Made by a program: the position numbers and the translations under genes. This document shows, piece by piece, positions 14,023 through 49,696 of a DNA stretch of 53,968 nucleotides (the stretch's first letter is position 1; each line of letters starts with the position of its first letter). A model generated the notes under the pieces. That model was not told where the DNA came from. It did no database searches and saw only the letters and a program-made list of their open reading frames with translations. Source of the stretch: Prorocentrum cordatum (Eukaryota); the NCBI GenBank assembly GCA_963575745.1, contig CAUYUJ010000277.1, positions 62,001-115,968 of the forward strand, in the 5' to 3' direction.

Positions 14023-17110
<3,088 letters not shown>

Positions 17111-18945
17111 GGGCTAATTCAGCCAGAATCTGAACTGGGTCCGGCGGTGAACCGTCAACCTAGTCACCGCCGCGAGCCTCGTAGAGCTCAGCTTGGTAAG
17201 AATGCAGAGAATCGGAGTAGAGTCATAAAATCTAGATTTTTTGAAAATCTGGATTTTCGATTTTTGCGATGTTCATATTCGCTCAATTCCCGGAAGTCAA
17301 CTCATAAGAAAATGCATCAGGAGAGCTGAGCTGCTGTCAGAAAGGAGTTTATATTCCAATGCCGCGCAAAAATCTGTTTTCTCAAAATAAATGGTTAAAT
17401 ATCTTTGAAATTCTCGCAAAACCGACCAAAAGTCACCAATTTGTCCGCCCCAGCCGGGTGGGCCAACTGGGCGCCGGCGGTAAACCGTTAACCTTCTTTA
17501 CCGCCGGGGGACTCGTAGAGCTTCCTGAGAACGAATTGTGTTTCAGCCCAGAGAACGCCCCCGATGCTTCTGAATTGTCTTCTGTTCGAGCTCTGTAGCT
17601 TTCCTGCAGCACGAGTTACGTGCGAAAATCGACAGCACCTCTAAAGATGACTCGAACAGTACGAATAGTTCGGCAAACCTAGCTCGAATATCAGACCGAG
17701 TTCAGAGCTCTGGAATCGACAGGCGGACGCACCTGATGTCTCCAAATCAATTCCTATGATTACCAGCCCTGCAGCCCCCCTGCAGCCCGAGTTAATTGCA
17801 GAAAACCGACAGCTCTCAGGATGACTCCAACAATACGAAAAGTTTCGCGGACCTAGTTCGGGCAGCAGACCGAGTTTCGAGCTCTGGATTCGACCAACGG
17901 ACGCAGCTGATGTCTCTAAATCGATTCCTGTGACTACCAGGTGGCCCCCCTGCAGTCCGAGTTAATTACAGAAAACCGGCAGCACCTCTCAATATGACTC
18001 GAAGAATACGAATAGTTTCGCGATTCTAGATCGGGCAGCAGACCGAGTTCAGAGCTCTGTATTCAACAAACGAACGCGACTGATGATTCCGAATCGGTTT
18101 CTGTGAGTATCAGCTCTGTATCTGTCGTACTCGAGTTAAGTACAGAAAACCGAGAGCGTCTGTCAAGATAACTCGAATAGGTTTGCGAATCTAGCTCGGC
18201 TAGCAGACCGAGTTCAGACCTCTCGATCCGACAGGCAAACGCACCTGAACATTCTGAATTGATAAGCTGTGCTTACCAGCTCTGTAGCTGTCCTGTATCT
18301 CGAGTTTAGTCCAATATACCGAGAGCGCGTATCAAGATGACTTGAAACGGTCGATCCCGCCTGCCTGCTTTTTGGCAGTAATACGTACCCGATCGAGCTG
18401 AGATCAAGATGGCGAGCAGAAATAATATCGAATATCATGGGAAAAAAACTAGAGCTCAAACGAATTCTTGAATTTCGAGAACAAAACTGGCGCCGGCGGC
18501 GAACCGTCAATCTGGTCACCGCCGGGAACGTCGCAGAGCTCTTTCCACGCGTGAGAGAGCTCAGAGTCGGACGAGAGAGCTTCTAGAGGCATCTCTCGAA
18601 AAATTGAACATTCATTTTTGTTCATGTCGACATAAAGTTGGTTCCCCCAAGTGTTTTGATAGTGAATGTGCGCCTAACGAGCTCATAATAAGACGCAGAG
18701 GCCCTCATAGTCGTTTACAAGTGCGAAGAATCTGGTTTCTCAAAATGAATTGTCGAATATTTTTGAAATCTTTGCAAAACCGACCCAAAGTCAGCACATT
18801 ATCTCTTTTCGTCGGGTCGGCCAACTAGCTCCACCCCGCGCCGGAATTCCTCTAGCTCATCGATGCCGAAGATCTTTAAAAGAATTCTTGAATTTCGAGA
18901 ACAAAATTTTCAACCGACCAAAAGTCACCAAAAGGTCCGTCGAGA

Positions 18946-20166
18946 CTGGGCGCCGGCGGTAAACCGTCAACCTTTCTTACCGCCGGGGGACTCGTAGAGC
19001 TTCCTGACAATATATAATACCGAAAAAACATGTAGAGACCGAACAGTTTTTCAGCCCAAGCGATTTCAGACCTTTCGATGCAACAGCCGAACGCCCCTGA
19101 TGATGGATTGTCTTCTACACGAGCTCTGTAGCTCTCCTACAGCCCGACTTACGTGCGTAAATCGACAGCGCCTTTCAAGATGACTCGAACAATACGAATA
19201 GTTCGGCAAACCTAGCTCGAGTATCAGACCGAGTTCAGACCTCTGAATGCAATAGTGGGGCGCGTCTGATGTCCCCGAATTGATTCCTGCGATTACCAGC
19301 CCTGCAGCCACCCTGCAGCCCGAGTTAAGTGCAGAAAACCGACAGCGACTCTCAAGATCACTCGAACAATACGAATAGTTTTGCGGACCTAGCTCGGGCA
19401 GCAGACCGAGTTCCAAGCTCTGGGTTCAACAGAAGAACGCGCCTGATGCCTCCGAATCGATCCATGAGATTACCAGCACGATAGTTTCCCTACAGCCTGA
19501 GTGAAGTACAGAAAACCGACAGCACCTCTCAAGATGACTCGAACAATACAAATAGTTTCGCAATTCTAGATCGGGCAGCAGACCGAGTTCAGAGCTCTGG
19601 ATTGAGCAAACACCGCGACTGATGATTATAAATCAGTTTCTGTAAGTATCAGCTCTGTAGCTGTCGTATAGCTCGAGTTAAGTACAAAAAACCGAGAGCG
19701 CCTGTCAAGATGACTCGAATAATACGAATAGGTTTGCGCACCTAGCTCGGCTAGCAGACCGAGTTCAGACCTCTGAATGGAACAGGCGAACGCGCCTGAT
19801 CATTCTGCATCGATGAGGTGTGCTTACCAGCTCTCTGGCTCTTCTATAGCTCGAGTTATGTTCAGAAAACCGCCACTGCGTGTCAACATAACCCGAAACA
19901 GCCGATCCCGCCGCAGTGCTTTTTGGCAGTAATATCTACCCGATCGATCTGAGATCAAGACGGCGAGCTGAAATAAGATCGAATATCACGGGAAAAAATA
20001 CTAGAGCTGAAACGAATTGAGGAATTTCGAGAACAAAATTTTCAACCGACCAAAAGTCACCAAAAGGTCCGTCGAGATGTTTCTTGCCAACTAGCTAGCT
20101 CTCCAGCGCCCCGGAATTACTCTTAAGCTTCCAGCGATCACTTGCTAGGGGAAGCTCTACGAGTTA
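18946..20166 (-). mobile_element. Full-length family B rolling-circle-like element (~1.2 kb, internal 177-bp repeats)
   Basis: Inverted pair ACTCGTAGAGCTTCC / GGAAGCTCTACGAGT; flanks cgaga | tatttcttgcc rejoin to the family B consensus. Confidence 0.75.
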
Positions 20167-21829
20167 TATTTCTTGCCAACTAGCTCTCCAGCGCCCCGGA
20201 ATTACTGGCGCCGACAGTGAACCGTCAACCTGGTCACCGCCGGGAACCTCGTAGAGCTCCTAACACGCGTAAGAGTGCTCAGCATCAAAAGAGGAGGCTT
20301 CTGGAAGCATTTCTCGAAAAAGAGAAAACATGATATTTTTCATGTCGACATAAAGTTGGTTTCGCCAAGTGTTTTGATAGTAAAAATGCATCTAGAGAGC
20401 TCATATTAAGAAGCAGAGGCCCTCATAGTCGTCTACAGGTGCGAAAAATCTGCTTTCTAAAAATAAAAGGACAAATATCTTTCAAAAAATCGCAAAACCA
20501 CCCAAAAGTTGTCACTTTGTCCGTCGGGGCCGGGTCGGCCAACTAGCTCGACCCCGCGCCGGAATTCCTCTAGCTCATCGACTGGGCGCCGGCGGTAAAC
20601 CGTCAACCTGGTCACCGCCGGGGACCTCGTAGAGCTCTTTTCTTGCCCAGCTCCTCGGAACACGTGAAGCAAGCGTAAGCGAGAGCCGAAAAACTCTAAA
20701 AAATCGATCGCATACAAATAGCTTTGCGGACTTAGCTCGAGAAGCAGACACTGTTCAGAGCTGTAGATGCTTCAGCCGAACGCCCTTGATGATTCTGTAT
20801 CGGTTTCTGCGCGTACCACCTCTGTAGCTGTGCTACAGCTAAAGTTAAGTGCAGAATACCGACAGCGCCTCTAAAGAGAACTTGAGAAATACGAATAGTG
20901 TTGTGGACCTAGCTCGACTAGCAGAACGATTTCAGGCCTCTCGATGCAACAGACGCAAGCGCCTGGTGATACTGAATCAGTTTCTGTGCGCATCAGCACT
21001 GTAGCTTCTCTGAATCTTGAGTTCAGTACAGAAAACCGGCATCACTGGTGAAGATGACTTTTACGGACCTAGCTCGAGTAGCAGACCGAGGTCAAACCTC
21101 TGGATGCAACAGGCGAACGCGCCTGATCATTCTGAATCGGTTTCTGTAAGCATCAGCTCTGTAGCTCTCGAAATCTCGAGTTAAATACAGAAAACACTGA
21201 ACGCGTGTCAAGATGACTCGGAACGCAGTTGGTTCCAGCAAGTCGTTTGATAGTAATATTGCAGCTACGGACCTGAGAATTTAACTGGCAGTCGCGGCAT
21301 AACCCACTACACGTGAGAAAAATACCGGTTCTCAAAATAAATTGTCAAATATATTCCAAATCAAAGCAAAACCGACCCAAGGTTATCACATTGTCTCTTT
21401 TGGTCAGGTCGGCCAACTAGCTCCACCCCGCGCCGGAATTCCTCTAGCTCATCGACGCCGAAGAGCTCTTCGAGGTATTTTTGGACTGCCAACGTGAAGT
21501 CGGCCCCTGGCTTTGCTCGGGAGAATTTCTCCACGGAATGAACTGAGAATGTGCGAGGTAACTTCTGTAATGCCAAGCTTCCCTCTCCGCAAATAGCAGC
21601 CCAAACGAATTATTAGAACTGCAAAATCGGCTGAGCCAGGCCGCGGAAGGTACGATCGCGTCCCTTTTCGACATTTCACCAACTAGCCCACCCTGTCGCC
21701 GAATTCCTCTAGCTCTTCTACCTTCAGAGCTCTACGAGGCATGACGAGGTACTCTTAAGCTTCCAGCAATCTTGGTTGGGTGTTGGGGTCGGCTACACAG
21801 GGCGCGCGCGCCCTAGCCGTGCAGAGCCC

Positions 21830-24800
21830 CTAGGGCCCCTCACGCCCTCTCAACCTCTTTGGGGTTGGAGGCCCGAGGACCTCAGAGATAATCTGCCGAA
21901 CACCTTGGAGCAGGCGCTCACAAGCTGTGAGCTCGCTATCTGTAACAGTGGCCCTCAGAGGGAGTAAAGAAGCCTCCTGGAAAACTCGTCGCCAGTGGTT
22001 GTCCCCAAATGAGACCTCCACATAGCAACCTAGAGCAGAGCCTTCAACACTCACGCCACCGTCCCATCCTCCACGGATACGTTTGATACAATGTCTCTGT
22101 TGTCGTAAATATCTGAAGTCAATCCATCTTCCCGTCCTTCCCCTCCTCGCCTCCCAAGTCAACTCATCCGCAACACAATTGAACTCTCTGTAGATATGCT
22201 TCCACGGATCCGTCCCTACAGTGGCACACCTGATGTCGTAATCCTCCGCCAGTTGATTCATATCGTTTTGTAGACCATGCACTCTCCTGCGGTACGAACG
22301 ATCACGGCATTCCCAGATCCCTCGGGCCCAGTTCACCACACACATACTATCACCTGTCATTTCAACCAACAATGAGCTCTCCGAGCCCTCCTGCCAGACA
22401 GCTTCGTTGTTATATCCGTGGGCAATCCTACGAGCGAGCCTGTCGGAGTCCTCAGGGGAGTCCCACGTATCCACAGGGCAAGGAGCACAGGGCGGTTTCC
22501 TGAAGATGGGCTCCCATCGAGGCTGTATTTTTGTCATGCACGCAACTACATTCCACCAGTCCGTCGCATTCCACTTGATGCTGAACCAGCGTAAATTACC
22601 ACTCGCCGCCAGCATAAGACAATGCCAGCTGTCAGTGCTTGCATGCGCTCTCCCTCCCACTCTCCTCGTACCTTCCCTCCTCCTGGCTCCCGTGAACATG
22701 GATACAAGTGTGCCCCTCCGTAGTGACCATTCCCCCGCACAGTGTAACATGGCCTGACGCGTCTGACGCCAGGCTCGTGCCCCACGCATGTCCGTGGAGG
22801 CGATGGCCCGATCATGAAACTGGGCCAGCTCCAACGCAAACTCGAAATTGGCCCGGACCACCTTCTCTAGGAGACTGCAGTGGCCAGCCTGCAAGAATAG
22901 CTCGTATGACTTCGGTGTGGTCCTGTCCCTGAACTCCTCCCACGTCTCCTCCTCCCTCTTGTGTAATCCTCGCATACCGTTGAGACACCTCCCCTCCCAG
23001 ACCTTAATCCTCTCCAGCAGTCGTAGATTGCACGGCCAGCCTATACATCCGTGGTACACCACAGACTGCACACGAGCGGCATACCTGCGAAACTTCTCTT
23101 TGAGTGAGACCGATCTGGAGCGATAAAACTGGATGTCAGCAAAATAGGCCTTCCTCCCTTTCTCCAGTCGATGATACAAGCCGTGATATCCCTTGATTTC
23201 CGAGCTGAGCTTCACTCCTAGTACCTCCACCTCCTCCTTCCTCGGCATTACGACAGTCGAGCGCAAGTGCTCTGGGAGATCCTCATCTCCAGAAATCGCA
23301 CAGATGGCTGGCGAGAGCGGGCAGAGCAGCGGCGGATCGCCACATGTGTACGTCTGGCCAAAAAGTACATACGCCAGAGAGTCCTCCTTCCAGTCCATCC
23401 CTGCCCGTCTGAGTGTTACCGTCATCATACCGATCATCTGTTGTAGCTGGAGCTGCGATGCAGCACAGAGCGTAACATTGTCCGCCCACAAGAAGTGGTG
23501 TACAAGAGCGCCGTCCGTCCCCTCCCCTTCCAGTCGGACACCGTATCCTAATGTATCCCAAGTCTGAATCACAGATCCCCAGATGGCCTCCAAGACAATA
23601 TTGAAAAGTATGGGTCCCTCCTTACCTCCCGTTCGGACCGATTTATTGTACCTCACCTCATCGCCGCACACGTTCTGAAACTCAAAGGTAGCAATGTTAT
23701 CCAGCATGGGCTCCACAATGGCTCTTATGAGGCACACAGGGTACTTAAGATACAGCATGGCCATGATGATAGTGTGCAGTGTGACATTATCGAAAGCTTT
23801 GTGTATGTCCAAGACTCCCACGTGCATAGACTCCGCCTTCCCCCACACATTTGCATGTCTAGTAAGATGTGATAGTGGTGCCGTGACGTTAGTAACCTTC
23901 TGATCCTTCTCAAATCCGTATGTGCACAACCGTCGGTTCACAGGAAATGCATCAATAAACTGCAACACACATGCCATGTACCATTTACTCATCACACTGA
24001 TCAGGCAAATCCCTCTGGTGTTGGAGAGTCGTGTAGCATCCCGCATCTTCGGCACAAGTTGGATACTGAGCTGCCTCCACGTCTCAGGGCTGGAGGCTCC
24101 CTGCTCGAAAATCCTCTGGAAAGCACGCCGCACAAACAAGAGGCTCCTCCACGGCAGCTCACGAATGACCTCAGCAACGACTCCATCGCTACCGGGTGCC
24201 GTGCCAGGCTTCAAAGACGCACGACCCTGCATGAGCATGCCCATCGCGATGACTCTTCCCTCCACCCCACGGTCGTTGTGTCTGAGTTCCTGAGAGGCCT
24301 CCAAAGTCCGTTTTTCCTCCTCCGAGTTCGTGTAAGACGCCGTCGCATACCTAGTGATCTCCGTACTCCACCTAGTCCTGTCCATTGTCAGCACACCCTC
24401 ACACTCCAGCTCCTTGAGGATACACCGTGAGGTCTTACTGGATCCCCTGTGGTCCTGCAGGAATTGGTTCCTCCTATGCTGTCTCCTAAGGGTCTTCCTC
24501 CTACGCAGCAGTTGTTTACGAGTATTCCCAAGGGCCCCACGCCTGATGGCAGACTCCACCTCTATGAGCTCCCTGGGCCTCTGAATGGGTTTGCAGTTGG
24601 GGCGCCCCTTAGTGTGGTCCACAAGCTCTGCCGTCTCCAAGAGTACCCGTCCGACCTGCTGCAGGTCCGCCCCTACCGTGTCCGATGCAAGCCCCTCAAT
24701 CGACACATCCGCAAGCACACGAAACATGTTCCTCGCCGTGTCATCCGTCGGCTGCCAGCCAACCATGGACACAGGGCGGGGTGGCAAAGCTGGGCGCCTG

Positions 24801-25612
24801 ATCTCCGTCGTCTTGAGATTTACCCAGACCAGGGCGTGATCACTATAGGCACTGGCTTTTGCACGTATACCTGGCGTAGCTTTGATGGGTTCCACAAACT
24901 GGACCTGGCATCTCATTTCCTGGTGAGCTCTTGCCTCATCCGCGCACCAACGTGTAGGGATGAGCATATAGTCAAGCACACGCTGCACATGTGTGGAACA
25001 GTACGGTATGTGTGTGATACGTCGGTCTCCATATGTGTTCGCCGCACAGATCCCCCAAGTACTCATGAACCTCATAAGCATGTCCCTCCTCTCTGCATGG
25101 TAGTTCGCCTCCTCCCTCCTCCCGTCCACCTGCATAAGACCTCCTCCCGTCATTCCCAGCATATCTGGTTCAAGTTCCGTCTGAGCATCCATCCCCACCC
25201 ATGGTATGACTCCAGCCTGTGTAGTTTGAAACATAGTAACACTGCACTTAGTAAGTACATCTAAGTATTCCCCCAAGTGGTCAACATCACGCATCACGCA
25301 TGGTAGATACACTGATGCAACTAGAGCACCCCTGAATTCGACACACGCAAATCGTACCCCACTCCGTCGAGCAATCACATGTGGTGCCCAATCCCTGCAC
25401 CATGCAACCGCCGCCTTGGAGCAGGAGCTATAGTGAATCTCCCATCCACATCTGTTAAAAGTATTTGCACTGGTATGCTCACACTCTTGCAGACACACCA
25501 TTTGAATTGACCTGGCTTCACATGCAGCGACCAGGTTGGGTACTTGACCGTCGGATATTTTCTGCACATTCCAGGTTGCGACCACGGTCTCTGTCGCAGC
25601 CCTACCGCCCCG
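21830..25612 (-). CDS. LINE ORF2: AP endonuclease + reverse transcriptase + permuted RNase H (no initiating ATG before the endonuclease)
   Basis: APE: ATWNV, CLQE, SVYLP, GMDAQ, LDY, SDH. RT: APGSDG, QLVPK, RGICL, LDIHKAFDNV, TGGKEGP, WADN, EVLG. RNase H: GDS, HIYREFN..AD, WDGG, TVTDSE. Confidence 0.93.
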   Translation of the reverse strand, partial: RGGRAATETVVATWNVQKISDGQVPNLVAACEARSIQMVCLQECEHTSANTFNRCGWEIHYSSCSKAAVAWCRDWAPHVIARRSGVRFACVEFRGALVASVYLPCVMRDVDHLGEYLDVLTKCSVTMFQTTQAGVIPWVGMDAQTELEPDMLGMTGGGLMQVDGRREEANYHAERRDMLMRFMSTWGICAANTYGDRRITHIPYCSTHVQRVLDYMLIPTRWCADEARAHQEMRCQVQFVEPIKATPGIRAKASAYSDHALVWVNLKTTEIRRPALPPRPVSMVGWQPTDDTARNMFRVLADVSIEGLASDTVGADLQQVGRVLLETAELVDHTKGRPNCKPIQRPRELIEVESAIRRGALGNTRKQLLRRRKTLRRQHRRNQFLQDHRGSSKTSRCILKELECEGVLTMDRTRWSTEITRYATASYTNSEEEKRTLEASQELRHNDRGVEGRVIAMGMLMQGRASLKPGTAPGSDGVVAEVIRELPWRSLLFVRRAFQRIFEQGASSPETWRQLSIQLVPKMRDATRLSNTRGICLISVMSKWYMACVLQFIDAFPVNRRLCTYGFEKDQKVTNVTAPLSHLTRHANVWGKAESMHVGVLDIHKAFDNVTLHTIIMAMLYLKYPVCLIRAIVEPMLDNIATFEFQNVCGDEVRYNKSVRTGGKEGPILFNIVLEAIWGSVIQTWDTLGYGVRLEGEGTDGALVHHFLWADNVTLCAASQLQLQQMIGMMTVTLRRAGMDWKEDSLAYVLFGQTYTCGDPPLLCPLSPAICAISGDEDLPEHLRSTVVMPRKEEVEVLGVKLSSEIKGYHGLYHRLEKGRKAYFADIQFYRSRSVSLKEKFRRYAARVQSVVYHGCIGWPCNLRLLERIKVWEGRCLNGMRGLHKREEETWEEFRDRTTPKSYELFLQAGHCSLLEKVVRANFEFALELAQFHDRAIASTDMRGARAWRQTRQAMLHCAGEWSLRRGTLVSMFTGARRREGTRRVGGRAHASTDSWHCLMLAASGNLRWFSIKWNATDWWNVVACMTKIQPRWEPIFRKPPCAPCPVDTWDSPEDSDRLARRIAHGYNNEAVWQEGSESSLLVEMTGDSMCVVNWARGIWECRDRSYRRRVHGLQNDMNQLAEDYDIRCATVGTDPWKHIYREFNCVADELTWEARRGRTGRWIDFRYLRQQRHCIKRIRGGWDGGVSVEGSALGCYVEVSFGDNHWRRVFQEASLLPLRATVTDSELTACERLLQGVRQIISEVLGPPTPKRLRGREGP

Positions 25613-26713
25613 TCAATGATTCGGGCACCGTAGTGTCTGAAGAAACTGCACCTGATTAATATCGGGCTCAACGTGTGTCAAATTATCACCATAGAGGTTC
25701 CATCCTTTTGTCGGTCCCCATTCTGCAATCAATGTCTTTTGTGTAGTATCATCAGCATTCGGCATATACCACATATATGTCATTGGCGGACCCGTCTCAC
25801 CTCGAAGAATACCCGTCGCATTTTTCTTGATATCAGAAAATAGTGCTTGAAACCGTCCTACCGCCCGAACATGTTCTATCTTCCATGGCTGGCATTCAAC
25901 TTGAAATCGCAAATTGGGAGGCAATGAAGTGAGTCCCCGCCTGTAGCCATTCTCCCACACACGTTTCGCTTCCCATAGGATCTCAGAGGATGTACCTGGC
26001 TTGAAATAGATCCTACCCCTCGTGTACGGCCAATATCTACCAGTATTCTCCTGAACCGTCCGATCCAAGTCCAGTGCCACCCTCTGTGTAGCATCAATTT
26101 GTTTAGAGTCAATGAGACCATTCATCGCCGTCGTCAGTGCCTCCTGTGAAAGAGCCTCCCGCTGACGTATCTCACGGTTCCTCCATCCCTCCCTTGAAAC
26201 CCACCCCTTGAACTCAACATAACGTGGATTCCAACCAGGGTCGTGCCTGTCCGTACCCGCCTTCGTGGATCCACTTGCTACCGACAGCCCGTCCCCCTGC
26301 TTGAGCTTCTGAACTTCATTGGTGAGGTCCTGGATCGCCGATTCTGTTTTTGATACCCTGGAGTCCAGAGATGTTTTCAGACCGTCCATTTCCGTGCGAC
26401 TAGAGTTCCTGAACGATTGCATGTCTGCCGTCATAGTCTGTTGTCCCGTCATGATGGATCGAAACATCTGTTCAATGTCAAGGCCAGCTTCCTGGGCAAC
26501 CTCATTCGCACCCAACGTTTGTCCCGCACCTCCTCCTTCTCCTTTCCCTCCTCCTTTGACATTACGAGCACGGACAGCTCTAGCAAACGCCCCACCCCCA
26601 TCATCAATTGTCATGTCCTGGCCCACCGCATGCAAGCCTGGAGCACCTGAAACTGAAGAACCTGCTGGCATCGCTGGTGCAGCACCTGAAACTGAAGAAC
26701 CTGCTGCAGCCAT
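25613..26713 (-). CDS. LINE ORF1 (predicted coiled coil followed by RRM-like region), ~366 aa from the first ATG
   Basis: First in-frame ATG at 26713 (AAG ATG GCT); heptad-like stretch MDGLKTSLDSRVSKTESAIQDLTNEVQKLK then RYVEFKGW; lies directly upstream of ORF2. The frame stays open to ~27349 without ATG. Confidence 0.75.
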   Translation of the reverse strand: MAAAGSSVSGAAPAMPAGSSVSGAPGLHAVGQDMTIDDGGGAFARAVRARNVKGGGKGEGGGAGQTLGANEVAQEAGLDIEQMFRSIMTGQQTMTADMQSFRNSSRTEMDGLKTSLDSRVSKTESAIQDLTNEVQKLKQGDGLSVASGSTKAGTDRHDPGWNPRYVEFKGWVSREGWRNREIRQREALSQEALTTAMNGLIDSKQIDATQRVALDLDRTVQENTGRYWPYTRGRIYFKPGTSSEILWEAKRVWENGYRRGLTSLPPNLRFQVECQPWKIEHVRAVGRFQALFSDIKKNATGILRGETGPPMTYMWYMPNADDTTQKTLIAEWGPTKGWNLYGDNLTHVEPDINQVQFLQTLRCPNH

Positions 26714-34304: not shown

Positions 34305-34399
<95 letters not shown>

Positions 34400-37891: not shown

Positions 37892-38263
37892 CTGGGACCC
37901 GGCGGTAAACCGTCGACCAGGTAACCGCCAGGAGCCTCGCAGAGCTCTTGTCCGTACGGCGCTTCCTTGCGCGTGAGCTGAAAGACTTGACAAATTACGT
38001 AGTTTTCACCGAAAGTCGGTTGTTTCAAGTGTTTTGATAGTAATACTGCAGCTACAGATCTGAGAATTTGACAGGCGAACGCGGCATAACTCACTACAGC
38101 TGCGAGAAATATCGGTTCTGAGAATGAATGTTCAAATCTTCCACAATGTTTGCCCAACCGACCCAAAGTTCACACATTGTCCGCCCGGGCAAGCTGGGTC
38201 AAATAGCTGCACCCCGCGCCGGAATTCCTCTAGCTCATCGTTGCCGAAGAGCTCTATGAGGTA
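37892..38263 (-). mobile_element. Full-length family A rolling-circle-like element (372 bp)
   Basis: Terminal hairpin plus CCTCG(C)AGAGCTC at the left and GAGCTCTA(T)GAGGTA at the right; flanks ccggaa | tta rejoin to host consensus ccggaattac. Confidence 0.75.
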
Positions 38264-38559
38264 TTACTGGGAGCCGGCGGTGAACCGTCAACCAGGCTAC
38301 CGCCGGGAGCCTCGTACAGCTCTTGTCTGCACGGCGCTGCTTGGAATACATGGGAGAAGCTTTCTTACGCATAGCTGAAAACTTGGAAAATTACGTTTTT
38401 CAGTTTTCACAGAAAATCGGTTCCTTCAAGTGTTTTGATAGTAATACTGCAGCTACGGACCTGAGAATTTCACTGGCGGACGCGGCATAACCCACTACAG
38501 GTGCGAAAAATACCGGTTCTCATAATGAACTGGAATCCGGCGGTTAACCGTCAACCAAG

Positions 38560-40677
38560 TTTTTTGTTGCGTCTTTGCTGGGACCGTCCTGGCCACTGAG
38601 GCCAGGTCCAACGAAGTCTCAGGCGAATCAGAGCCTCTTATTCGTCACGCAAGCAGTCAACTCTTATTTCACATCAGCGAAGCTGTTAGAATAAAGAGAA
38701 TAAAAACCAGCAATGACACAATCAATCGCAAAACACACAAATGATAAACGAAGAGCAAATAAACAGCGAAGCTGTTAGAATAAACAAGAAGACAACATAT
38801 GATATGAAACAATGTGCGACTTATCACTGCGAATGATCAAAGAAGGTCTGTACAACCTGTGGGGGCACATCACATATGCGCTCCGCCACTGATAACTCCG
38901 CATCTGCGACCGTGGCACTTGGTGGCAGACACCAAGCCGCAAGATACACATCCTTGAAAGTGATGTCGGTCCGCGAGAAGATATACTTGTTACGCAGACC
39001 TATCTGTATCCACACGCCACAGGCCCTTCCGCGGCTACAAACACCCCCATCAAAGCCAGCTCTGATAAGGCAAGGAGTAAAACACTGAGATTCGAAATCA
39101 CTGAGGTAAAAGAAATCGGCTTACATATGGCCCTGACGGGCCTGATGGGTCAGTAAGTCAGCCCTCTGGTTCCATTCCCGAAAAGACTGAGAGAAGAAGT
39201 CACGGCCAGCCTCTGGAGGCCTCACCGAGTCAGCATCCTGCATCTCGTCCAACTTATTTTTCAGAGTGTCCACCCTTTTCTGATATACCTGAGCTGATAC
39301 TTTCCATTTCCCACAGAGCCAGTTAATCACTAGCAACGAGTCCCCCTGGATGTCCAGTGCTATCCCATCCGTTTCGAGGTCCCACTGTGTGCAAAGCATG
39401 CTATGCAGCGCGATACGTTTGCTAAGTCGATCCCTATATGCTGGTGTATCCTCCCGATCTTGACCAATATGAACCCCTCCATCCTCATCCATATTCAAGA
39501 ACACAGGAACCCCTGAGGACGCCAAGCCTTTGCATTTCTTCTGGAAATACTTCAACATACTACTAGAACAAACGCGCGCAGCGAAATCCATGAAATGTTC
39601 AAAGCTTCCAACAAAGAACTCCCACCAGGATAAACCATAAAACGATTCCAAAGAATAATACCAAGAACGAAGCCCTACACTCTCCTGTCCCCCACGATGT
39701 CGTTTCAGTGACCTAGCCCCCTTGGATTTCCCCCAACATCTGAGAGCCTCGCTCGAATCTGTCCTCGTTCTATCCCACAGCCGGCCAAACGCCAGGCATG
39801 AGAAACGAGACTCTCTCCAAGCTCTTGTCGAGTTCGCCTCCAGCGCCTCCTGATCTGCGATCAACCTCTGGGCAAAATCGCGGACGTCGATTGCCCACAT
39901 CCAGTGCACTCTGAGAAACTTCTGTACAATACCCACATAATGTGCATCATGGAACTTCTGTCTCGCACGTTCATACCTCCTCGTATTCCACTCCTGATAA
40001 CTTTCCTCCTCCCTCCGTACACAACGAAACATGACAGCCAGGCACTTACCCTCAAAGATATGAAGGGCACTCAATGAACTAGAGTCGACGGTGCATCCTT
40101 CCGCCGCGCGGAGAACAATACTCTGAACCCTCTGCGCATACCTCTCATACTTATCTTTCAGCGGAATGGCCGTGGAGCGGAAAAAGGACGCCTGGCCCCA
40201 GAACGCCCTACGAGCAGAGTCAACACTAGCATCCAGATCTGGATGCTCATTTACATGTAGTTCAGAACAAATATGAGCCCCAAGCACCTCCATCTCCGTC
40301 ACTCTTCTGAATCGATACATTCCCGAATCCTCCGACCCAATCGAGAGAACAAGATCAGCAGTTCGGAATATTTCCCCTTCCGCATCACGCGGAGGCGCAG
40401 CACCGAACACCATGTACAATAGACTGGACTCCTTCCATCTCATACCATAGTCATGTAAGTGTGTAGTCAGACCGTGTAACATGCGCGTGAGTTCCTCCCG
40501 ACTCCGAGCCAGAACATGACAGTTGTCCGCCCAGAGGAAGTGATTAATAACCGAAATACAGCTAGTCGAGCCTGTAGCAAACTCAATACGATAACCTAGC
40601 CCTAGCACGTCCCATTCTCGAACCGTGGAACTCCACATAGCGGCAACAATAAGATTGAAAGCCAATGGTCCCTCATA
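38560..40677 (-). mobile_element. 5'-truncated LINE of a third, more divergent family (RT C-half + permuted RNase H)
   Basis: EGPLAFN, HFLWADN, MEVLG, IQGDSLLVINW, FREWNQRADLL; after one in-frame TAA (39121-39123) IRAGFDGG and ATVADAEL; A-rich tail at 38560-38570. Confidence 0.9.
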
Positions 40678-42106
40678 CCGCCGGGAGCCTCATAGAGCTC
40701 TTTCCTCGCACGGCACTGCTGGGCACACATCGGTGCAGCTTTCTTACGCGAGGGCTACTTCAATTTTTTTCAGTTTTCACCGAAAGTCGGTTGCTTCAAG
40801 TGTTTGGATAATAACTTTGCAGCTACGGACCTGAGAATTTCACTGGCAGACGCGGCATAACACACTACAGGTGCGAAAAATACCGGTTCTCGAAACGACT
40901 GATCAAATCTCTCACAATGTTCGCCTAACCGACCCAAAATTCCCACATTGTCCGCCCGGGCCGGGTGGGTCAACTAGCTGCACCCCGCGCCAGAATTCCT
41001 CTAGCTCATCGATGCCGGAAAGCTCTACGAGGTATGTTCAAAACTTCCAGAATGTTCGCCGAATCCACCCAAAGTTCACACATTGTCCGCCCGGGCCGGA
41101 TGGGTCAACTGGGCGCCGGCGGTAAACCGTCATCCTTTCTTACCGCCGGGAGACTCGTAGAGCTTCCTTGACACATATATTATGTCCAAAGAATTTGCAG
41201 AGAACGAATAGTTTATCAGCCCTACCGCTGATAGCAAACTGATCTCGGGCGTCTAGATACATTTGACTATTGACCCTTCCCATTGCTGTGCTGAACAGGT
41301 AGCTCATCTGCAGCACGAGTAGAACCAAGAAAAAAAAAACATTTCCAAGAAAGTAGCAGAGTACGAATCGCTGTTCAGCCCTAGCGCAAAAAGCAAACTG
41401 AGTGTGGGTGTCTAGATACTTTCAAATAGCGCGCATAATGATTATCTCCCCATTGCAAGCTCATCGGCAGCTCGAGTTCAGCCCAGGAAACGAACCCCGT
41501 CACAAGAATAATAGCAGAGTATGACTAGTTGTTCGGCGTCTGCGCTCACAACAGACCCAAGCCAAGCGTCTAGATACTTTACACTAGCGCGCCTCAAGAT
41601 TTCCTTCTGAATTCTGTGCGGAAGAGCTCTCAAGCTCATCTGCAGCTCGAGTTCAGTGAAGAAATTCACCATCATTTCGAAAAAAAACGGTCGAATACAA
41701 TAGTTTTGCGGACCTAGCTCGAGTAGCAGACTGAGTTCAGAGCTCTGGATGCATCAGCCGAACGCGCCTGATATCGATTATATGTGCGTTCCAGCTCTGT
41801 AGCTATGCTACAGCTCGAGATTAATAAAGAACACCGACAGCACCTGTCAAGATGACTCGAAGAATACAAATAGTTTCGCGGACCTAGCTCGAGTAGCAGA
41901 CCGCGTTCAGACCTCTGGATGCAACAAACAAACACGCCTGATAATTTGGAATCCGTTTCTGGAAGCATCAGCTCTGTAGCTCTCTAAATCTCAAGTTAAG
42001 CACAGAGAAACGTCAACGCGTGTCAAGATGACTCGAAACGGCCGATCCCGCCAGGACGCTTTTTGGGAGTAATATGTACCCGATATGTATCGAATATGGT
42101 CAAAAA

Positions 42107-42189
<83 letters not shown>

Positions 42190-45100
42190 GATTTGTTGAA
42201 TTTCGAGAACATAATTTTTCAACCGAGCAAGTTACCAAAAGGTCCGTCGATATTGTTATTGCCAACTAGCTCTCCAGCGCCCCGGAATTACTCTTAAGCT
42301 TCCAGCAACTAGCAGGGAAGCTCTACGAGTTACTGGGCGCCAGCCGTAAACCGTCAACCTTCCTTGCCGCCGGGGGACTCGAGAGGTTCCCGACAATATA
42401 TAATGTCGAAAAAAAATGTAGATAACGAATAGTTTTTCTGCCAAAGCGATTTCAGACCTCTCAATGCAACAGCAGAACGCCCCTGATGCTTCTGAATTAC
42501 CTTCTGTACGAGCTCTGTAGCTCTCCTAGAGCCTGAGTTACGTGCGAAAATCGTCAGCAGCTCTCAAGATGACTCGAAAAATACGAATAGTTTGGCGAAC
42601 CTAGCTCGAGCATCAGACCAAGTTCAGAGCTGTGGGTTCGACAGGCGGACGCGCCTGATGTCTCCGAACCGATTCCTGTCATTACCAGCCCTGCAGCCCC
42701 CCTACAGCCAGAGTCAAGTGCAGAAAACCGACAGCATCTCTCAGGATGACTCGAACAATACGAACAGCCTCGCTGAACTAGTTCGGGCAGCAGACCGAGT
42801 TTCGAGCCCTGAATTCGACAGGCGGGCACGCCTGATGTCCCCAAATCGATTACTGTGACTACCAGCACTGTAGCCCCCTACAGCCCGAGTTAAGTACAGA
42901 AAACCGACAGCACCTCTGAATATGACTCGAAGAATACGAATAGTTTCGCGATTCTAGATCGGGCAGCAGACCGAGTTTAGAGCTCTGGATTCAACAGACG
43001 AACGTGACTGATGATTCTGAATCGGTTTCTGTTAGCATCAGCTCTGTAGCTGTCATATAGCTCGAGTTAAGTACAGAAAACCGAGAGCATCTGTCAAGAT
43101 GACTCGAATAATACGAATAGCTTTCCGGAGCTAGCTCGGCTAGCAGACCGAGTTCAGCCTAATGAAACAGGCGAACACGCCTTCATTCTGAATCGATAAG
43201 GTGTGCTTACCAGCTCTGTAGCTGTCCTGTATCGAGTTAGGTCCAATATACCGAGAGCGCGTAGCAAGATGACTCGAAACGGCCGCCCGCCTGCCTGCTT
43301 TTTGGCAACAAAAGGTACCCGATCGAGCTGAGATCAACATGGCGAGCGGGAATCAGATCGAATATCACGGGAAAACAAACGAGAGCTCAAAATTTTCAAC
43401 TGAGTCACCAAAAGGTCCGTCGTTTTTCTTACCAACAAGCTCTCCAGCGCCCCGAAATTACTCTTAAGCTTCCAACAATAACTTGCTGAGGGAAGCTCTA
43501 CGAGTTACTGGGCGCCGGCGGTGAACCGTCAACCTTTCTTACCACTGGGAGACTCGTAGAGCTTCCTTGATGCCCAAAAAAAAAAGGAGTGAACGAATAG
43601 TTTTCCAGCCCGAGCGCTGATAGCAGGCTGATCTCAGGTCTAGATGAATTTGAATATTGTCCCTGATAATTTATTTGCCATTGCTGTGCTAAACAGTCTG
43701 CAGTTACTGGCGCCGGCGATAAACTGTCAACCTGATCACCGCCAGGACCTCGTAGAGCTCCTTGGACGCCTAAGAGTGCTCAAAATCAAAAGAGAGGGCT
43801 TCTGGAAGCATTTCTCGAACAACAGAAAACATGATTTCTCTCATGTCAACCGAAGTTTGTTCCGCCAAGTCTTTTCACAGTAAAAGTGTACCTAGAGAGC
43901 ACAGCGCTCCTCGTTACACATCAAGGGAGCGTCTGGAGCAAAATCGGACACTGGGCGCCGGCGGTAAACCGTCAACCTTTCTTACCGCCGGGGGACTCGT
44001 AGAGCTTCCTGACAATATATTATGTCGAAAATAAATTGCGGGGAACGAATAGTTCTTCAGCAGCCCAAGTGATTTCAGACCTCTCGATGCAACAGCCGAA
44101 CGCCCCCGCTGCTTCTGGATTCTCTCTGTACGAGCTCTCAGGCTCTCCTACAGCCCGAGTTACGTGCGTAAATCGACAGCACCTCTCAAGATGACTCGAA
44201 CAAAACGAATAGTTTGGCAACCCAGCTCGAGTACCAAGTTCAGACCTCTGAATGCGACAGGCGGACGTCTGATGTCTCCGAATCGATTTCTGATTACCAG
44301 CCCTGCAGCCCCCCTACAGCCCGAGTTAAGTGCAGGAAACCGAGAGCACCTCTCAGGATGACTTCAACAATACGAATAGTGTCGTAGACCTAGTTCGGGC
44401 AGTAAACCGAGTTCCGAGCTCTAAATTCAACAAGCGGACGCGCATGGTGTCTTCAAGTCGATTCCTGTGACCACCAGCACTGTAGCTCCCCTACAGCCCA
44501 AGTTAAGTGTAGAAAAACGACAGCACCTCTGAAGATGACTCGAACATACGAATAGTTTCGCGATTCTAGCTCGGACAGCAGGCCGAGTTCGGAGCTCTGG
44601 ATTCAACAGACAAAGGCGACTGATGATTCTAAATCGATTTCTGTGAGTATCAGCTCTGTACTTGTTCTTTAGCTCGAGTTAATTAAGTACAGAAAACCGA
44701 GAGCGCCTGTCAAGATAACTGGAAAAATACGAACAGGTTTCCAAACCTAGCTCGGCTAGCAGACCGACTTCAGACCTCTGGATGCAACAGACGCACGCGC
44801 GTGATCATTCTGAACCGATGAGGTGTGCTTACCAGCTCTGTAGCTGTCCTCTATCTCGAGTTAAGTCCAATATACCGACAGCGCGTATCAAGATGACTCG
44901 AAACGGCCGATCCCGCCGCAGTGCTTTTTGGCAGTAAAAGGTACCCGATCGAGCTGAGATCAAGAGGGCGAGCGGGAATAAGATCGAATATCACGGGAAA
45001 AAATACTAGAGCTCTAACGAATGGTTGAATTTCGAGAACAAAATTTTCAACCGACCAAAAGTCAGCAAAAGGTCCGTCGAGATTTTTCTTGCCAACTAGC

Positions 45101-45454: not shown

Positions 45455-46531
45455 CTGGGTGCCGGCGGTAAACCGTCAACCTTTCTTACCGCCGGGGGAC
45501 TCGTAGAGCTTCCTGACAATATATAATTTCGGAAAAATTCAGAGAACGTATAGTTTTTCAGCCCAAGCGATTTCAGACCTCTCGATGCGCCCCCGATGCT
45601 TCCGGATTGTCTTCTGCACGAGCTCTGTAGCTCTCCTACAGCCCGAGCTACGCGCGTAAATCGACAGCAACCCTGAAGATGACTCGAACAATACGAACAG
45701 CTTGGCAAACCTAGCTCGAGTACAGACCAAGTTCAGGCCTCTGAATGCGACAGGCGGACGCGTCTGATGTCTCCGAATCGATTCCTGTGATTACCAGCCC
45801 TGCAGCCCCCCTACAGCCCTAGTTAAGTGCAGGAAACCGACAGAATCTCAGGATGACTCGAACAATACGAATAGTTTCGCGGATCTAGCTCGGGCAGCAG
45901 ACCGAGATCCGAGCTCTGGATTCGACAGGCGGACGCACCTCATGTCTCCGAATCGATTCCTGTGACTACCAGCACTGTAGGCCCCCTACAGCCCGAGTTA
46001 AGTACAGAAAACCGACAGCACCTCTCAAGATGACTCGAACAATACGAATAGTTTCGCGATTCTAGAGCGGGCAGCGGACCGAGTTCAGAGCTCTGGATCA
46101 AACAGACAAACGCGACTGATGACTCTGAATCGGTTTATGTGAGCATCAGCTCTGGCGCTGCCATATAGCTCGAGTTAAGTACAGAAAACCGAGTACCAGC
46201 TCTATAGCTGTCCTGTATCTCGAGTTAAGTCCAATATACCGACAGCGCGTATCAAGATGACTCGAAACGGCCGATCCCGCCTGGACGCTTTTTGGCAGTG
46301 AAAGGTACCCGATCGAGCTGAGATCAAGATGGCGAGCGGTAGTAAGACCGAATATCATGGGAAAAAATACTAGAGCTCTAACGAATGGTTGAATTTCGAG
46401 AACAAAATTTTCAACCGACCAAAAGTCATCAAAATGTCCGTCGAGACTTTTCTTGCCAACTAGCTCTCCAGCGCCCCGGAATTACTCTTAAGCTTCCAGC
46501 AATAACTTGCTAAGGGAAGCTCTACGAGTTA
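45455..46531 (-). mobile_element. Full-length family B element inserted in a family A copy
   Basis: Flanks gtcggccaa | ctagctccacc rejoin to the family A consensus; both inverted repeats are present. Confidence 0.75.
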
Positions 46532-48859
46532 CTAGCTCCACCCCGCGCCGGAATTCCTCTAGGTCATCGATGCAGAAGAGCTCTACTGGGCGCCGGCGGT
46601 ACACCGTGAACCTTTCTCACCGCCGGGGGACTCGTAGAGCTTCCTGACAATATGTAATATCGAAATAAAATTGCAGAGAACGAGTAGTTTTCAGCCCAAG
46701 CGATTTCAGACCTCTCGATGCAACAGCCGAACGCCCCCGATGCTTCTGGATTGTCTTCTGTACGAGCTCTGTAGCTCTCCTACAGCCGGGGTTACGCGCG
46801 TAAATCGACAGCACCTCTGAAGATGACTCGAACAATACGAACAGTTTGGCAAACCTAGCTCAAGTATCGAACCGAGTTCAGGCCTCTGAATGCGACAGGC
46901 GAACGTGTCTGATGTCTCCGAATCGATTCCTGTGATTACCAGCCCTGCAGCCTCCCTACAGCCCGAGTTAAGTGCAGAAGAGCGACAGCATCTGAAGATG
47001 ATTCGAACAATACTTCGCAGACCTAGTTCGGGCAGCAGACCGATTTTCGAGCTCTGGATTCAACAGGCCGACGCGCCTGATGTCTCCAAATCGATTTATG
47101 TGACTACCAGCACTGTGGCCCCTCTACAACCCGAGTTAAGTACAGAAAACGGACAGCACCTCTGAAGATGACTCGAATAATACGAATAGTTTTGCGATTC
47201 TAGAGCGGGCAGCAGACCGAGTTCAGAGCTCTGGATTCAACAGACAAACGCGACTGATGACTCTGAATCGATTTCTGTAAGTATCGGCTGCAGTTTCCAT
47301 GTAGCTCGAGTTAAGTACAGAAACCGAGAGCGCCTGTCAAGATGACTCGAATAACACGAATAGGTTTGCGCATCTAGCTCGGCTAGCAGACCGAGTTCAG
47401 ACCTCTGGATGCAACAGACGAACGCGCCTCATCATTCGGAATCGATAAGCTCTGCTTACCAGCTCTGTAGCTGTTCTGTATCCCGAGTTAAGTCCAATAT
47501 ACCGATAGCGCGTATCAAGATGACTCGAAATGGCCGATCCCGCCTGGACGCTTTTTGGGAGTGAGAGGTACCCGATCGAGCTGAGATCAAGATAGCGAGC
47601 GGGAATAAAATCGAATATCATGGGAAAAAATACTAGCGCTCTAACCAATGGTTGAATTTCGAGAACAACATTTTCAACGACCAATAGTCACCAAAAGGTC
47701 CGTCGAGATTTTTCTGCCCAACTAGCTCTCCAGCGCCCCGGACTGGGCGCCGGCGGTAAACCGTCAACCTTTCTTACCGCCGGGGGACTCGTAGAGCTTC
47801 CTGACAATATATAATGTGGAACAAAAAAAAAACAGAGAACGAATAGTTCTCAGCCCAAGCGATTTCAGACCTCTCGATGCAACAGCCGAACGCCCCCGAT
47901 GCTTCCGGATTGTCTTCTTCACGAACTCTGTAGCTCTCCTAACGCCCGAGTTACGTGCGTAAATCGACAACACCTCTGAAGATGACTCTCAGAAAACGAA
48001 TACTTTGGCAACCCAGCTCGAGTATCAAACCAAGTTCACACCTCTGAATGCGACAGGCGGACGCGTCTGATGTCTGCGAATCGACTCCTGTGATTGCCAG
48101 CCCTGCAGCCACCCTACAGCCCGAGTTGCGTGCATAAATCGACAGCACCTCTGATGTGACTCGAACAATACAATAGTTTCGCGGACTAGTTCGGCCAGCG
48201 AGTTCCGAGCTTTGGATTCGACAGGCGGACGCGTCTGATGTCTTGAAACCGATTCGCGTGACCACCAGCACTGTAGCCCCCCCCCCCCTCCAGCCCGAGT
48301 TGAGTGCAGAATGGGAACCGGCGGTAAACCGTCAACCTGGTCACCGCCGGGAACCTCGTAGAGCTCCTAGACTGCGTAAGAGTGCTCAGCATCAAAAGAG
48401 GGCTTCTGGAAGCATTTCTCGAAAAAGAGAAAACATGATTTTTTTCACGTCGACATAAAGTTGGTTGCGCCAAGTGTTTCGATAGTAAAAGTGCATCTAG
48501 AGAGCTCATATTAAGACAGAGAGGCCCTCATGGTCGTTCACAGGTGCGAAGAATCTGCTTATTTAAATAAATGGTCAAATACTGGGCGCCGGCGGTAAAC
48601 CGTCAACCTGGTTACCGCCGGGGACCTCGTAGAGCTCCTAGCCCCGTGTCATAAGTCCACGCGTATCTCTGGAGTGCGCACGGTGAAAATATTTCCCATA
48701 ATAAAAAGGACACACACATGTATGAGTTTTAGCGCGTCTTTCAGCGCGCGAGAGCGATGCTGCCGCGGCAGCGAACATGCATGTAGACATGTACAGATGG
48801 ACAAGTATGCGAAAAAACGATCGACGTCAGCAGGCGCGGCAGCGCACCGGGCACGAGCG

Positions 48860-49467: not shown

Positions 49468-49498
<31 letters not shown>

Positions 49499-49651: not shown

Positions 49652-49696
<45 letters not shown>

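Follow-up and report, generated by a model that had tools for sequence, protein, structure and literature searches.

The locus described here raises the question of how a region that at first resembles satellite DNA was built, and from what. The analysis concerned 53,968 nucleotides of Prorocentrum cordatum (GenBank assembly GCA_963575745.1, contig CAUYUJ010000277.1, positions 62,001 to 115,968; hereafter the window, in its full length), in which long microsatellites and retroelements give a eukaryotic look, and centred on positions 17135 to 48640, which an earlier sequence-only reading had described as a 31-kb self-nesting pile of rolling-circle-like elements with co-varying asymmetric inverted repeats. 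The reading preferred here, with a probability of about 0.72, is that non-autonomous DNA transposons built like those of the Helitron2/Helentron group (HLE2; HINE/DINE-1 type) form a graveyard-like pile in this region. The elements are small and have no coding capacity, and the 31.5 kb form a mosaic of pieces of two families, A and B, and of long interspersed nuclear element (LINE)-like retroelements, the latter amounting to about 9 kb.

Against an expectation of 0.03, the window contains 31 occurrences of the core repeat CTCGTAGAGCT (23 on the plus strand and eight on the minus strand). The hairpin-loop core GGTAAACCGTCAACC, with up to three mismatches allowed, was matched 29 times on the plus strand and never on the minus strand; one match, at 34898, was attributed to chance, and the other 28 are true 3′ terminal modules. 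All of them lie on one strand between 17135 and 48640, and their hairpin (3′) ends face the lower plus-strand coordinates. Matching 5′ ends were found at ten positions only (20166, 21477, 21751, 31227, 35185, 38263, 41034, 42332, 43507 and 46531), an eleventh match at 22375 being dropped as a chance occurrence inside a LINE. Both ends are present in 10 of the 28 copies, leaving 18 without a 5′ end in the window; the tail and the host of the copy at 20582-21477 are imperfect, and the right edge of the pile, at 48640, is a 58-nt stump. These 28 one-strand modules and ten 5′ ends bear out the pile that had been proposed.

On the plus strand, a 3′ module follows an A and comprises about six nucleotides (mostly CTGGGC), a hairpin whose stem, GCCGGCGGTA, encloses roughly 14 nt of loop (AACCGTCAACC...) before it returns, a stretch of 3-5 nt and (A/C)CTCGTAGAGCT; that is, 6 nt, a 9-10-bp hairpin and a 13-16-nt inverted repeat. 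The 5′ ends read ...AGCTCTACGAG(G/T)TA| on the same strand. When the minus strand, which is the element strand, is followed, the terminal repeat comes first, at the 5′ end, and its reverse complement appears near the 3′ end, ahead of the hairpin and CGCCCAG. The element starts with T(A)A and a terminal repeat of 13-16 nt that folds back on a nearby internal copy to give a 5′ hairpin, and six family-specific bases close the 3′ end, which stops before a T. The inverted repeats are asymmetric: the 5′ one lies 2-3 nt from the end (TA-ACTCGTAGAGCTTCC in B and TA-CCTCGTAGAGCTC in A), and the 3′ one lies about 44 nt inside, being followed by 3-5 nt, a 34-nt hairpin with a predicted 10-bp stem and 14-nt loop, and the last 6 nt.

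Fourteen modules belong to the A type (CCTCGTAGAGCTC) and 14 to the B type (ACTCGTAGAGCTTCC). Since all six A-type 5′ ends carry GAGG and all four B-type ends carry GAGT / GGAAGCTCTACGAGT, the 5′ and 3′ repeats co-vary by family, as the sequence-only reading had claimed, and its size estimates (about 370 bp for A and 1.1-1.2 kb for B) agree with the 372 bp and 1077-1224 bp found here. In three complete B copies, the two repeats are complementary at 15 of 16 positions. At the 5′ end of a B copy, the terminal repeat is predicted to pair with a partial copy about 20 nt further inside. Seven 5′ ends were folded, and the hairpin formed in five of them (an A and a B copy of the window and the metagenome loci L003, L044 and L055), closing on ACTC/GAGT; it did not form in the other two (L057 and L029). 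The closing sequence is AGAGTAAT in six of the seven ends, the A copy of the window having AGAGGAAT instead.

The interior of the elements consists of 0-5 copies of a 177-bp repeat, and 12 or 13 internal arrays, with periods of 165-177 bp and 2.0-4.9 copies each, were counted. Because the 177-bp arrays are so short, each within an element, and the 31 kb are a mosaic, classical satellite DNA, in which a single monomer forms a long and homogeneous head-to-tail array, was ruled out as the nature of the region.

In four longer B copies (27720-28230, 28807-29430, 35263-35850 and 36596-37150), about three more diverged units (...ACGAATAGTT...AGCAGAC...TCTAGAT...) precede the 177-bp array; they look like the same monomer in an older part of the array and are absent from the Tandem Repeats Finder output. 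Nearly pure A runs were also observed at 34309-34397 (89 nt, 100% matches), 42102-42188 (87 nt, 97%) and 15398-15455 (58 nt, 100%), two of which lie inside elements, directly ahead of the 177-bp array; microsatellite expansion, the tail of a retro-insertion and an assembly artefact are candidate origins.

The way in which the copies entered their surroundings was examined by joining 45 nt from either side of each copy and searching the joined sequence in the window and in the metagenome loci. The sequence-only reading had stated that removing six named copies restores the host, and for all six an empty site without gaps across the junction was found. The spanning paralogues numbered nine for 18946-20166, five for 20205-21751, ten for 33416-35185, six for 37892-38263, one for 38530-41034 and five for 45455-46531, and the uninterrupted host was also present in metagenomes (L003, L006 and L115 for 33416-35185; L045 for 45455-46531). 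In the same search, the pairs 30454-31227, 41109-42332 and 42333-43507 matched only neighbouring 3′ modules and no uninterrupted host, and no match spanned the joined flanks of 20582-21477. On the plus strand, an A precedes 28 of the 28 module starts and a C or T follows all ten 5′ ends, in accordance with the insertion after A and before T or C that had been noticed earlier. Since the flanks leave a single ambiguous A (T on the element strand), the full-length copies have no target duplication. The general claim that target duplications are lacking held for the six full-length copies with gap-free empty sites, but not for the truncated A copy at 18487-18881, which has a perfect 25-bp duplication of host sequence on both flanks. 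The full-length copies entered older members of these same families at exact positions and duplicated no target sequence.

A few insertion sites recur; on the element strand, they lie mainly around the base of the host 5′ hairpin (AGAG|TAA|TTCC), at CTAG|TTGG and at AAAA|TTTT. On the plus strand, GGCCAA|CTAGCTC in A hosts was used by the copies starting at 17467, 27533, 41109 and 45455; CCCCGGAA|TTACTCTT in B hosts by those at 36596, 37892, 45118 and 47743; GGAATTA|CTCTT in B hosts by 20205, 38267 and probably 35263; and GAGAACAAAA|TTTTCAACC by 18487, 30454 and 33416. Two of the B-host sites, CCCCGGAA|TTACTCTT and GGAATTA|CTCTT, flank the conserved AGAGTAAT that closes the 5′ hairpin. Every insertion in the pile points in one direction, and at least some of the events were independent, since different inserts (A or B) occur at one same site.

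The same module was found well beyond this locus. Metagenome contigs were scanned with a 21-nt hairpin motif, and at least 124 stretches, nearly all from marine samples, contained the terminal module together with many unrelated interiors; since the sequences past the repeat are unrelated, many families appear to share one terminal module. The counts in the rest of this paragraph are those among the matches listed. Position -7 was an A in 99 of the 109 distinct copies with enough upstream sequence, and from position -8 outward the bases were near-random, so that the 3′ terminus is sharp; the sequence-only reading had called for this sharpness to be checked in dispersed copies. The six inner bases are family-specific (TGTCGA in 16, CTCGAA in ten and CTGGGA in nine, with about 40 variants in all), and the stem return and ACTCGTAGAGC are conserved though they lie outside the search pattern. 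Thirty-six distinct 5′ ends read GCTCTACGAG-T-(C/T)-A|, with C or T next in 31. Of 105 dispersed copies, 14 adjoin another element at its CTAGC...N10-24 site, the figure for random positions of the same loci being 1.6%, five stand head-to-tail within 8 nt of another copy and 83 are in other contexts. The proposal that the family accumulates within itself therefore applies to the window, and outside it in part only, as about 19 of the 105 copies abut another. In loci with several modules, 21 of 30 have a single orientation throughout and 56 of 66 neighbouring pairs agree, these loci not all being independent. Some metagenome contigs hold 6-9 modules in less than 5 kb. Because these loci also cluster in one direction, dense one-directional clusters are a habit of the whole group and are not peculiar to this locus.

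The 21-nt motif gave no match in viral contigs. In genome contigs it gave two (L122 and L123; one metagenome-assembled genome labelled Nitrospinota), which were excluded from all counts; since one contig name equals that of metagenome locus L004, the module contigs of the Nitrospinota bin are probably misbinned eukaryotic sequences.

Evidence that the hairpin is maintained as a structure came from 135 distinct modules, collected with a relaxed core and aligned without gaps. Paired changes in the stem include GCCGGCGG/CCGCCGGC, ACGAGCGG/CCGCTCG and GCGCGCGG/CCGCGCG; 47 cells were altered on both sides, against 10.9 in shuffles, of which none of 500 reached that value, and slid controls gave 7-24. 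Hardly any variation was seen in the loop, for which, however, the search pattern selects. The terminal repeats differed from their own partners by 4.17 mismatches and from shuffled partners by 5.27, with none of 2000 shuffles as good; the automated pairing of 3′ and 5′ repeats, which allowed two mismatches, includes spurious partners in the metagenomes, and the clean pairs are those of the window copies, L055, L002 and L070. By family, the inner parts of the repeats read CTTCC, CTCTT, CTCCTT and CCTACT. This 60-nt module, with its stem covariation, offers a probe for the family and for the missing enzyme in protist genomes, and a substrate for studying recognition by Helitron2-type Rep proteins.

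Helitron2 elements are defined by asymmetric repeats of 8-15 nt, the 5′ one lying within 0-2 nt of the terminus and folding into a 5′ hairpin, by a 5′ T, by a 3′ repeat just upstream of the 3′ hairpin and by compensatory mutations; in Chlamydomonas, 5′ truncation, an overabundance of 3′ ends and one-ended copies with 7-19-bp duplications were reported (PMC3627910). The elements of C. reinhardtii (Helitron-1N1_CRe; CRe-1,2,3) resemble those of the pile in their asymmetric repeats, both hairpins, compensatory changes, short full-length copies without target duplication, 5′ truncation with an excess of 3′ ends, and one-ended truncated copies between long duplications of variable length (7-19 bp there; 25 bp and, imperfectly, about 20 bp here). 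They differ in that they insert after TTTT and have the 3′ repeat 20-30 nt from the end; the passages on them describe no internal satellite or self-targeted pile (PMC3627910).

The HINE/DINE-1 elements of mite, Drosophila and Culex have 12-15-nt repeats at distances of 2-4 nt (5′ end) and 38-60 nt (3′ end), with a nearby inverted copy, a 3′ palindrome, central tandem repeats and a T-rich or TT target (PMC4067079). In the pile, these distances are 2-3 nt and about 44 nt, the 5′ repeat has a short inverted copy just internal to it, the 3′ repeat is succeeded by a palindrome and tandem repeats occupy the centre; the lack of coding capacity, the very high copy number and the clustering of related insertions are also shared. 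In contrast to the published elements, the target here is R|T rather than a clear TT, the hairpin is longer (a 9-10-bp stem and a conserved 14-nt loop), the host is a marine planktonic eukaryote and not an arthropod, and no partner Helentron was found among the window and loci sequences. The Cg_HINE elements of the Pacific oyster, compared by architecture and not by sequence, have satellite-like arrays of 140-180-bp monomers in fixed orientation to their flanks, lack target duplications, insert in other repeats and have no settled autonomous partner, all as in the pile; however, they occur in both orientations and are evenly spread, whereas here copies pile up in one orientation at a few recurrent sites (PMC7492417). 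Head-to-tail copies, ascribed to bypass of the termination signal, are also known from the tandem Helitron arrays of bat and silkworm, but those are canonical Helitrons with a 5′ TC, a 3′ CTRR and an A|T target, and their ends are unlike those described here (cited in PMC4067079).

Several other classes were rejected. Canonical Helitrons (HLE1) start with TC, end with CTRR, insert between A and T and have no inverted repeats; the 5′ end here is TA or TG, the 3′ ends are CCCAG, TCGACA, TTCGAG and others, and inverted repeats are present. A cut-and-paste (DDE) miniature inverted-repeat transposable element, which would have inverted repeats at its two outermost ends and a target duplication of fixed length, was ruled out by the 3′ repeat lying 44 nt inside the end and by full-length copies without duplication. 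Introner-type elements that create GT..AG introns found no support from the end sequences, to which that judgement is confined, since removal would lose one host base.

The strings CTCGTAGAGC, GCTCTACGAG, AAACCGTCAACC and GGTTGACGGTTT returned only unrelated primer matches among the 15 of 64 papers listed in a search of literature text, with figures, supplements and Repbase/Dfam outside its range, and a literature search on Helitrons in phytoplankton returned nothing specific. The elements are abundant and, as judged from literature text, probably form a new family, and probably many related families, within a kind that is already known. They show the known habits of that kind, namely a satellite-like cargo, 3′ ends in excess, tandem junctions and a tendency to cluster, in a host group in which such elements are little described. 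Most work on these elements has until now concerned insects and bivalves, and the present example comes from a marine planktonic eukaryote, with a module that is frequent in ocean metagenomes.

The sequence-only reading had assigned the elements to the non-autonomous Helitron2/Helentron type. The asymmetric repeats, both hairpins, the compensatory changes, the absence of duplication, the 5′ T and the central repeats sustain this assignment, and the T|T target rule is not strictly followed. Since no Rep/helicase was found in the window or the 123 loci, the superfamily is assigned from DNA architecture, and membership of HLE2 is considered likely, its likelihood being held at that level by the unseen Rep-helicase and the non-TT target.

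Several observations weigh against the interpretation of the pile as Helitron2/Helentron-type elements. HLE2 elements insert between T and T (PMC11417382), a rule not strictly followed here: the empty sites at 12 distinct window sites read R|T (A six times, G five times and T once) or, after a shift of one position, T|N, where N is also a T in no more than four of the 12. The junction itself has one T in every case in the window (28 of 28) and in 99 of 109 dispersed copies listed. A Rep/helicase was found in none of the 127 open reading frames (ORFs) of at least 75 amino acids between 17 and 48.8 kb of the window, a Rep or Pif1 domain in none of the 150 longest of the 170 ORFs from the metagenome loci, and neither Rep motif 2 nor a Walker A motif in 486,526 six-frame residues. 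None of the 5′ folds stands out by its energy (z from +0.39 to -2.0 in seven ends and -1.63 in one B end). The six bases of the 3′ end recur just outside the 5′ end in three or four of about 15 complete metagenome copies (L012, L044, L069 and nearly L058), for instance TGTCGA or CTGAAA on both sides. Moreover, the copies are old (70-96% identical), and the order of events in the pile is beyond confident reconstruction.

In short contigs and in a graveyard, only non-autonomous copies are expected. The recurring six bases suggest a preference for targets like the 3′ cleavage site; the six bases before the hairpin were rejected as a target duplication, being common to many copies with unrelated flanks. 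The 522-aa ORF in the copy 38530-41034 was considered as a transposase and rejected, as it corresponds to the C-terminal half of a LINE-like protein. If the elements are of the Helitron2 type, a Rep-helicase encoded elsewhere would nick one strand at both ends, the inverted repeats and hairpins would mark the start and stop points, and the copied strand would be joined in at an R|T position without target duplication.

IS200/IS605-type elements, too, are marked by a hairpin at either end, a lack of target duplication, a strand bias and insertion beside a fixed base. It was considered whether the elements belong to another, possibly undescribed, type of single-strand transposon, served by an IS200/IS605-like Y1 HUH enzyme or by some other nuclease that recognises hairpins at the ends, in which case the likeness to Helitron2 would be convergent. 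Such an origin would accommodate the departure from a strict T|T rule, the lack of a visible RepHel in the window or loci, and a loop that is near-invariant while the stem covaries, which published Helitron models do not require, the search pattern itself selecting the loop. Nevertheless, it is judged unlikely, for the published structural criteria of Helitron2 and HINE, including a 5′ hairpin made by the terminal repeat and the excess of 3′ ends, are present (PMC3627910, PMC4067079), and the enzyme search covered the window and short metagenome contigs, where non-autonomous copies should dominate. It is quite unlikely, too, that the module marks a large undescribed single-strand transposon lineage of marine protists, whose loop would be recognised and possibly nicked and which would prefer the 5′-hairpin base of other copies in a fixed orientation; from that preference, one-directional arrays would build themselves and satellites would be seeded. 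The covarying stem around an invariant loop, and the landing of LINE-like elements with an A-rich tail in the loop at least twice (window 38560 and L114), would fit a role of the loop as the recognised site. Were this so, the mode would be origin-like and nearer to that of Rep-encoding viruses and plasmids than to the Helraiser model.

Under the Helitron2/Helentron interpretation, the history of the pile has still to account for its unequal ends. The sequence-only reading had pictured copies nested in one another. This was right for the two-ended copies (10 of 28) but not as the whole story, as most interrupted hosts never resume when the pile is followed rightwards, a 25-bp duplication is present and about 9 kb are LINE-like. 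Because 18 copies lack a 5′ end and most hosts never resume, the 28:10 excess of 3′ ends goes beyond pure nesting. The head-to-tail junctions that had been placed at about 31228, 42333 and 43508 were located exactly at 31227|31228, 42332|42333 and 43507|43508, and an imperfect flanking duplication of about 20 bp accompanies the copy at 27720. Both B copies at 35263-36595 and 36596-37891 lack the 45-nt 5′ hairpin, and their heads are 96% identical. The excess of 3′ ends could have arisen from 5′-truncated or one-ended copies, from read-through and concatemers, and from deletion and unequal exchange at a later stage: a nested element may have been read through into the 3′ end of its host, concatemers would account for the three head-to-tail junctions, and unequal exchange afterwards would fit the closest neighbours, which are 94-96% identical. 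The LINE-like insertions appear to be later than the elements of the pile. Outside the closest neighbours, the copies are 70-90% identical and form several subfamilies, which indicates that the pile is old, and a full, unambiguous nesting parse was not reached, the copies being too diverged and rearranged. The earlier interpretation is right on architecture and too simple on history.

The resemblance of neighbours raises a different account, in which the pile came mainly from local duplication, unequal crossing-over or slippage of a few nested insertions, as a complex satellite or higher-order repeat. The single orientation of all 28 copies, the recurrence of junction types (alpha, beta, gamma and epsilon) and the unresumed hosts would follow from it; the most similar copies are indeed neighbours (35263, 36596 and 41109 at 94-96%; 28807 and 31228 at 94%), and a block made of B(1 to epsilon) plus a long A occurs twice in succession, at 28807-31227 and 31228-35185. 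However, the two long A copies that such a duplication should have produced are unequal (774 and 1770 bp), the same sites hold different inserts, with A and B types at both alpha and beta, the copies differ by 4-30% and comprise several subfamilies, and empty sites and the same junction types occur in reads of the organism and in other contigs. Local duplication as the main source is thus distinctly improbable; local exchange probably contributed to the pile, but not as its main source.

The contigs of sequencing runs bear on this and on the integrity of the assembly. Part of a 10-kb probe is contained in 20 runs from 14 studies, no RNA run being listed among them, and the contigs of four runs were aligned on window positions 37700-41250. 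Behind 37891, the commonest continuation was TTACTCTTAAGCTTCC (20 contigs in run X1 and 46 in X2), that is, the uninterrupted B host. The A-type 5′ end that stands at 41034 continues elsewhere as CTAGCTCC (29 contigs in X2), a host site used four times in the window, and the junction GGAATTA|CTGGG was present in all four runs. The summed depth over terminal parts was more than 100 times that over interiors, depth being no measure of copy number here. A collapsed or chimeric assembly of dispersed repeats is very improbable: the region is highly repetitive and no run contig spans the 3.5-kb stretch compared, but the copies, at 70-96% identity, are diverged enough to assemble apart, the nested junctions restore their hosts base for base, and the same junction types appear in independent runs and in metagenome contigs. 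As a pile of Helitron2/Helentron-type copies, the locus provides a clean and well-bounded example of hairpin-ended elements of the rolling-circle type with satellite-like repeats inside them that become stacked in arrays of a single direction, which has been proposed as a way for transposons to give rise to satellite DNA. The coordinates of its parts are collected in Table 1.

Table 1. Parts of the pile, in window coordinates.
Feature	Coordinates	Strand	Basis
Whole pile: 28 hairpin-ended elements and three LINE-like insertions	17135..48640	-	Module and 5′-end counts
Module starts, first half	17135, 17467, 18487, 18946, 20205, 20582, 27533, 27720, 28807, 30454, 31228, 33416, 35263, 36596		Read on +
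Module starts, second half	37892, 38267, 38530, 41109, 42333, 43508, 43707, 43951, 45118, 45455, 46586, 47743, 48311, 48582		Read on +
Complete B-type element, 1077 bp, in A-type host at GGCCAA|CTAGCTC, with 3′ module, 177-bp array and 5′ hairpin	45455..46531	-	Empty site in 4 window paralogues and L045; folds
Representative 3′ module: CTGGGT, stem GCCGGCGGTAA, 14-nt loop, stem TTACCGCCGG, GGG spacer, subterminal repeat ACTCGTAGAGCTTCC (on +)	45455..45519	-	
Representative 5′ end, with a hairpin made by pairing of the terminal repeat TAACTCGTAGAGCTTCC and internal GGAAGCTTAAGAGTAA	46487..46531	-	Folding
Example of internal satellite-like array, 177 bp x 3.3	45621..46192	.	
Complete A-type element, 372 bp, no tandem array, in B host at CCCGGAA|TTA	37892..38263	-	Empty-site paralogues; run contigs
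Complete B-type element, 1221 bp, nested in B host at TCGAGA|TGTTTC	18946..20166	-	9 gap-free spanning paralogues
A-type composite, nested in the same B host as 18946-20166 at GGAATTA|CTCTT; encloses A-type copy 20582-21477	20205..21751	-	
Complete A-type copy with internal repeat, 774 bp, at GACAACATA| of B host; then B copy 31228 head-to-tail	30454..31227	-	
Complete long A-type copy, 1770 bp, with 176-bp array and 89-nt A run, in B host at GAGAACATAA|TTTTGAACC	33416..35185	-	7 window paralogues and L003, L006, L115
A-type copy nested in A copy 38267; 2.1-kb LINE fragment splits its 3′ hairpin loop	38530..41034	-	
Two complete B copies (41109-42332, 42333-43507) head-to-tail, then a third B 3′ end at 43508	41109..43507	-	
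A-type copy without about the last 7 nt of its 5′ end; perfect 25-bp direct host duplication at 18462-18486 / 18882-18906	18487..18881	-	
Two long B copies (35263-36595, 36596-37891), both stopping at the 5′-hairpin base (...CCGGAA|), next 3′ module directly after	35263..37891	-	
Full-length LINE-like retroelement (boundaries +/- a few nt), in 5′-hairpin loop of B copy	21772..27503	-	ORFs, RVT_1 domain
5′-truncated copy of the LINE-like family of 21772-27503, inside 177-bp array	32071..33230	-	Common 3′ end ...GGCTACAC(C)AGGGCGCGCGCGCC; weak RVT_3 match
5′-truncated copy of a related LINE-like family, in 3′ hairpin loop; 522-aa ORF 39124-40689	38560..40676	-	A-rich 3′ end adjoins loop

The LINE-like element at about 21772-27503 encodes ORFs of 616 and 1260 amino acids in one frame with a single in-frame stop between them, contains an RVT_1 domain and ends 3′ in ...CCAACCAA without poly(A); it is apparently a near-intact non-LTR (long terminal repeat) retroelement. 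The 616-aa part had no Pfam match. The 2.1-kb block at 38560-40676 is 28% identical to the 1260-aa ORF over 523 amino acids (E 3e-61). A search of the whole window against Rfam at the gathering threshold gave no match.

LINE-like or T-run insertions were seen at the same spot of the 3′ loop, after CAACC[A/T][A/T]G(G) and starting with TTTTTTGTT on the plus strand, in at least two independent copies, one at 38560-40676 of the window and the other in L114 from about position 133; run X8 has a similar loose end at window position 38296. Insertions in hairpin loops (twice in the 3′ loop and once in the 5′ loop, at about 21772) may reflect nicking of the loop or a target preference of the LINE. At 33231-33279, a perfect 25-bp tandem duplication (CCTGTCAAGATGACTCGAAACAGCA twice) lies exactly at the 5′ junction of a truncated LINE copy.

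To the left of the pile, a long run of ORFs on the minus strand between about 4500 and 17100, in which a Copia-type RVT_2 domain occupies 4539-6035 and some segments are duplicated, for example as 27-bp repeats at 6578 and 8059, probably represents one or two LTR retrotransposons, and the leftmost element of the pile (17135) is inserted at the edge of this run. The flanks at 48900-53968 and 1858-3171 are GC-rich (58-62%) and contain microsatellites, including (CA)n blocks and (ACA)60. Short tandem repeats of 11-88 bp occupy 2181-3171, copies of a GC-rich unit, each about 100 bp long, are found at 49305, 49817 and 50985, and the window ends in 2 kb of (CACAGACA)n.

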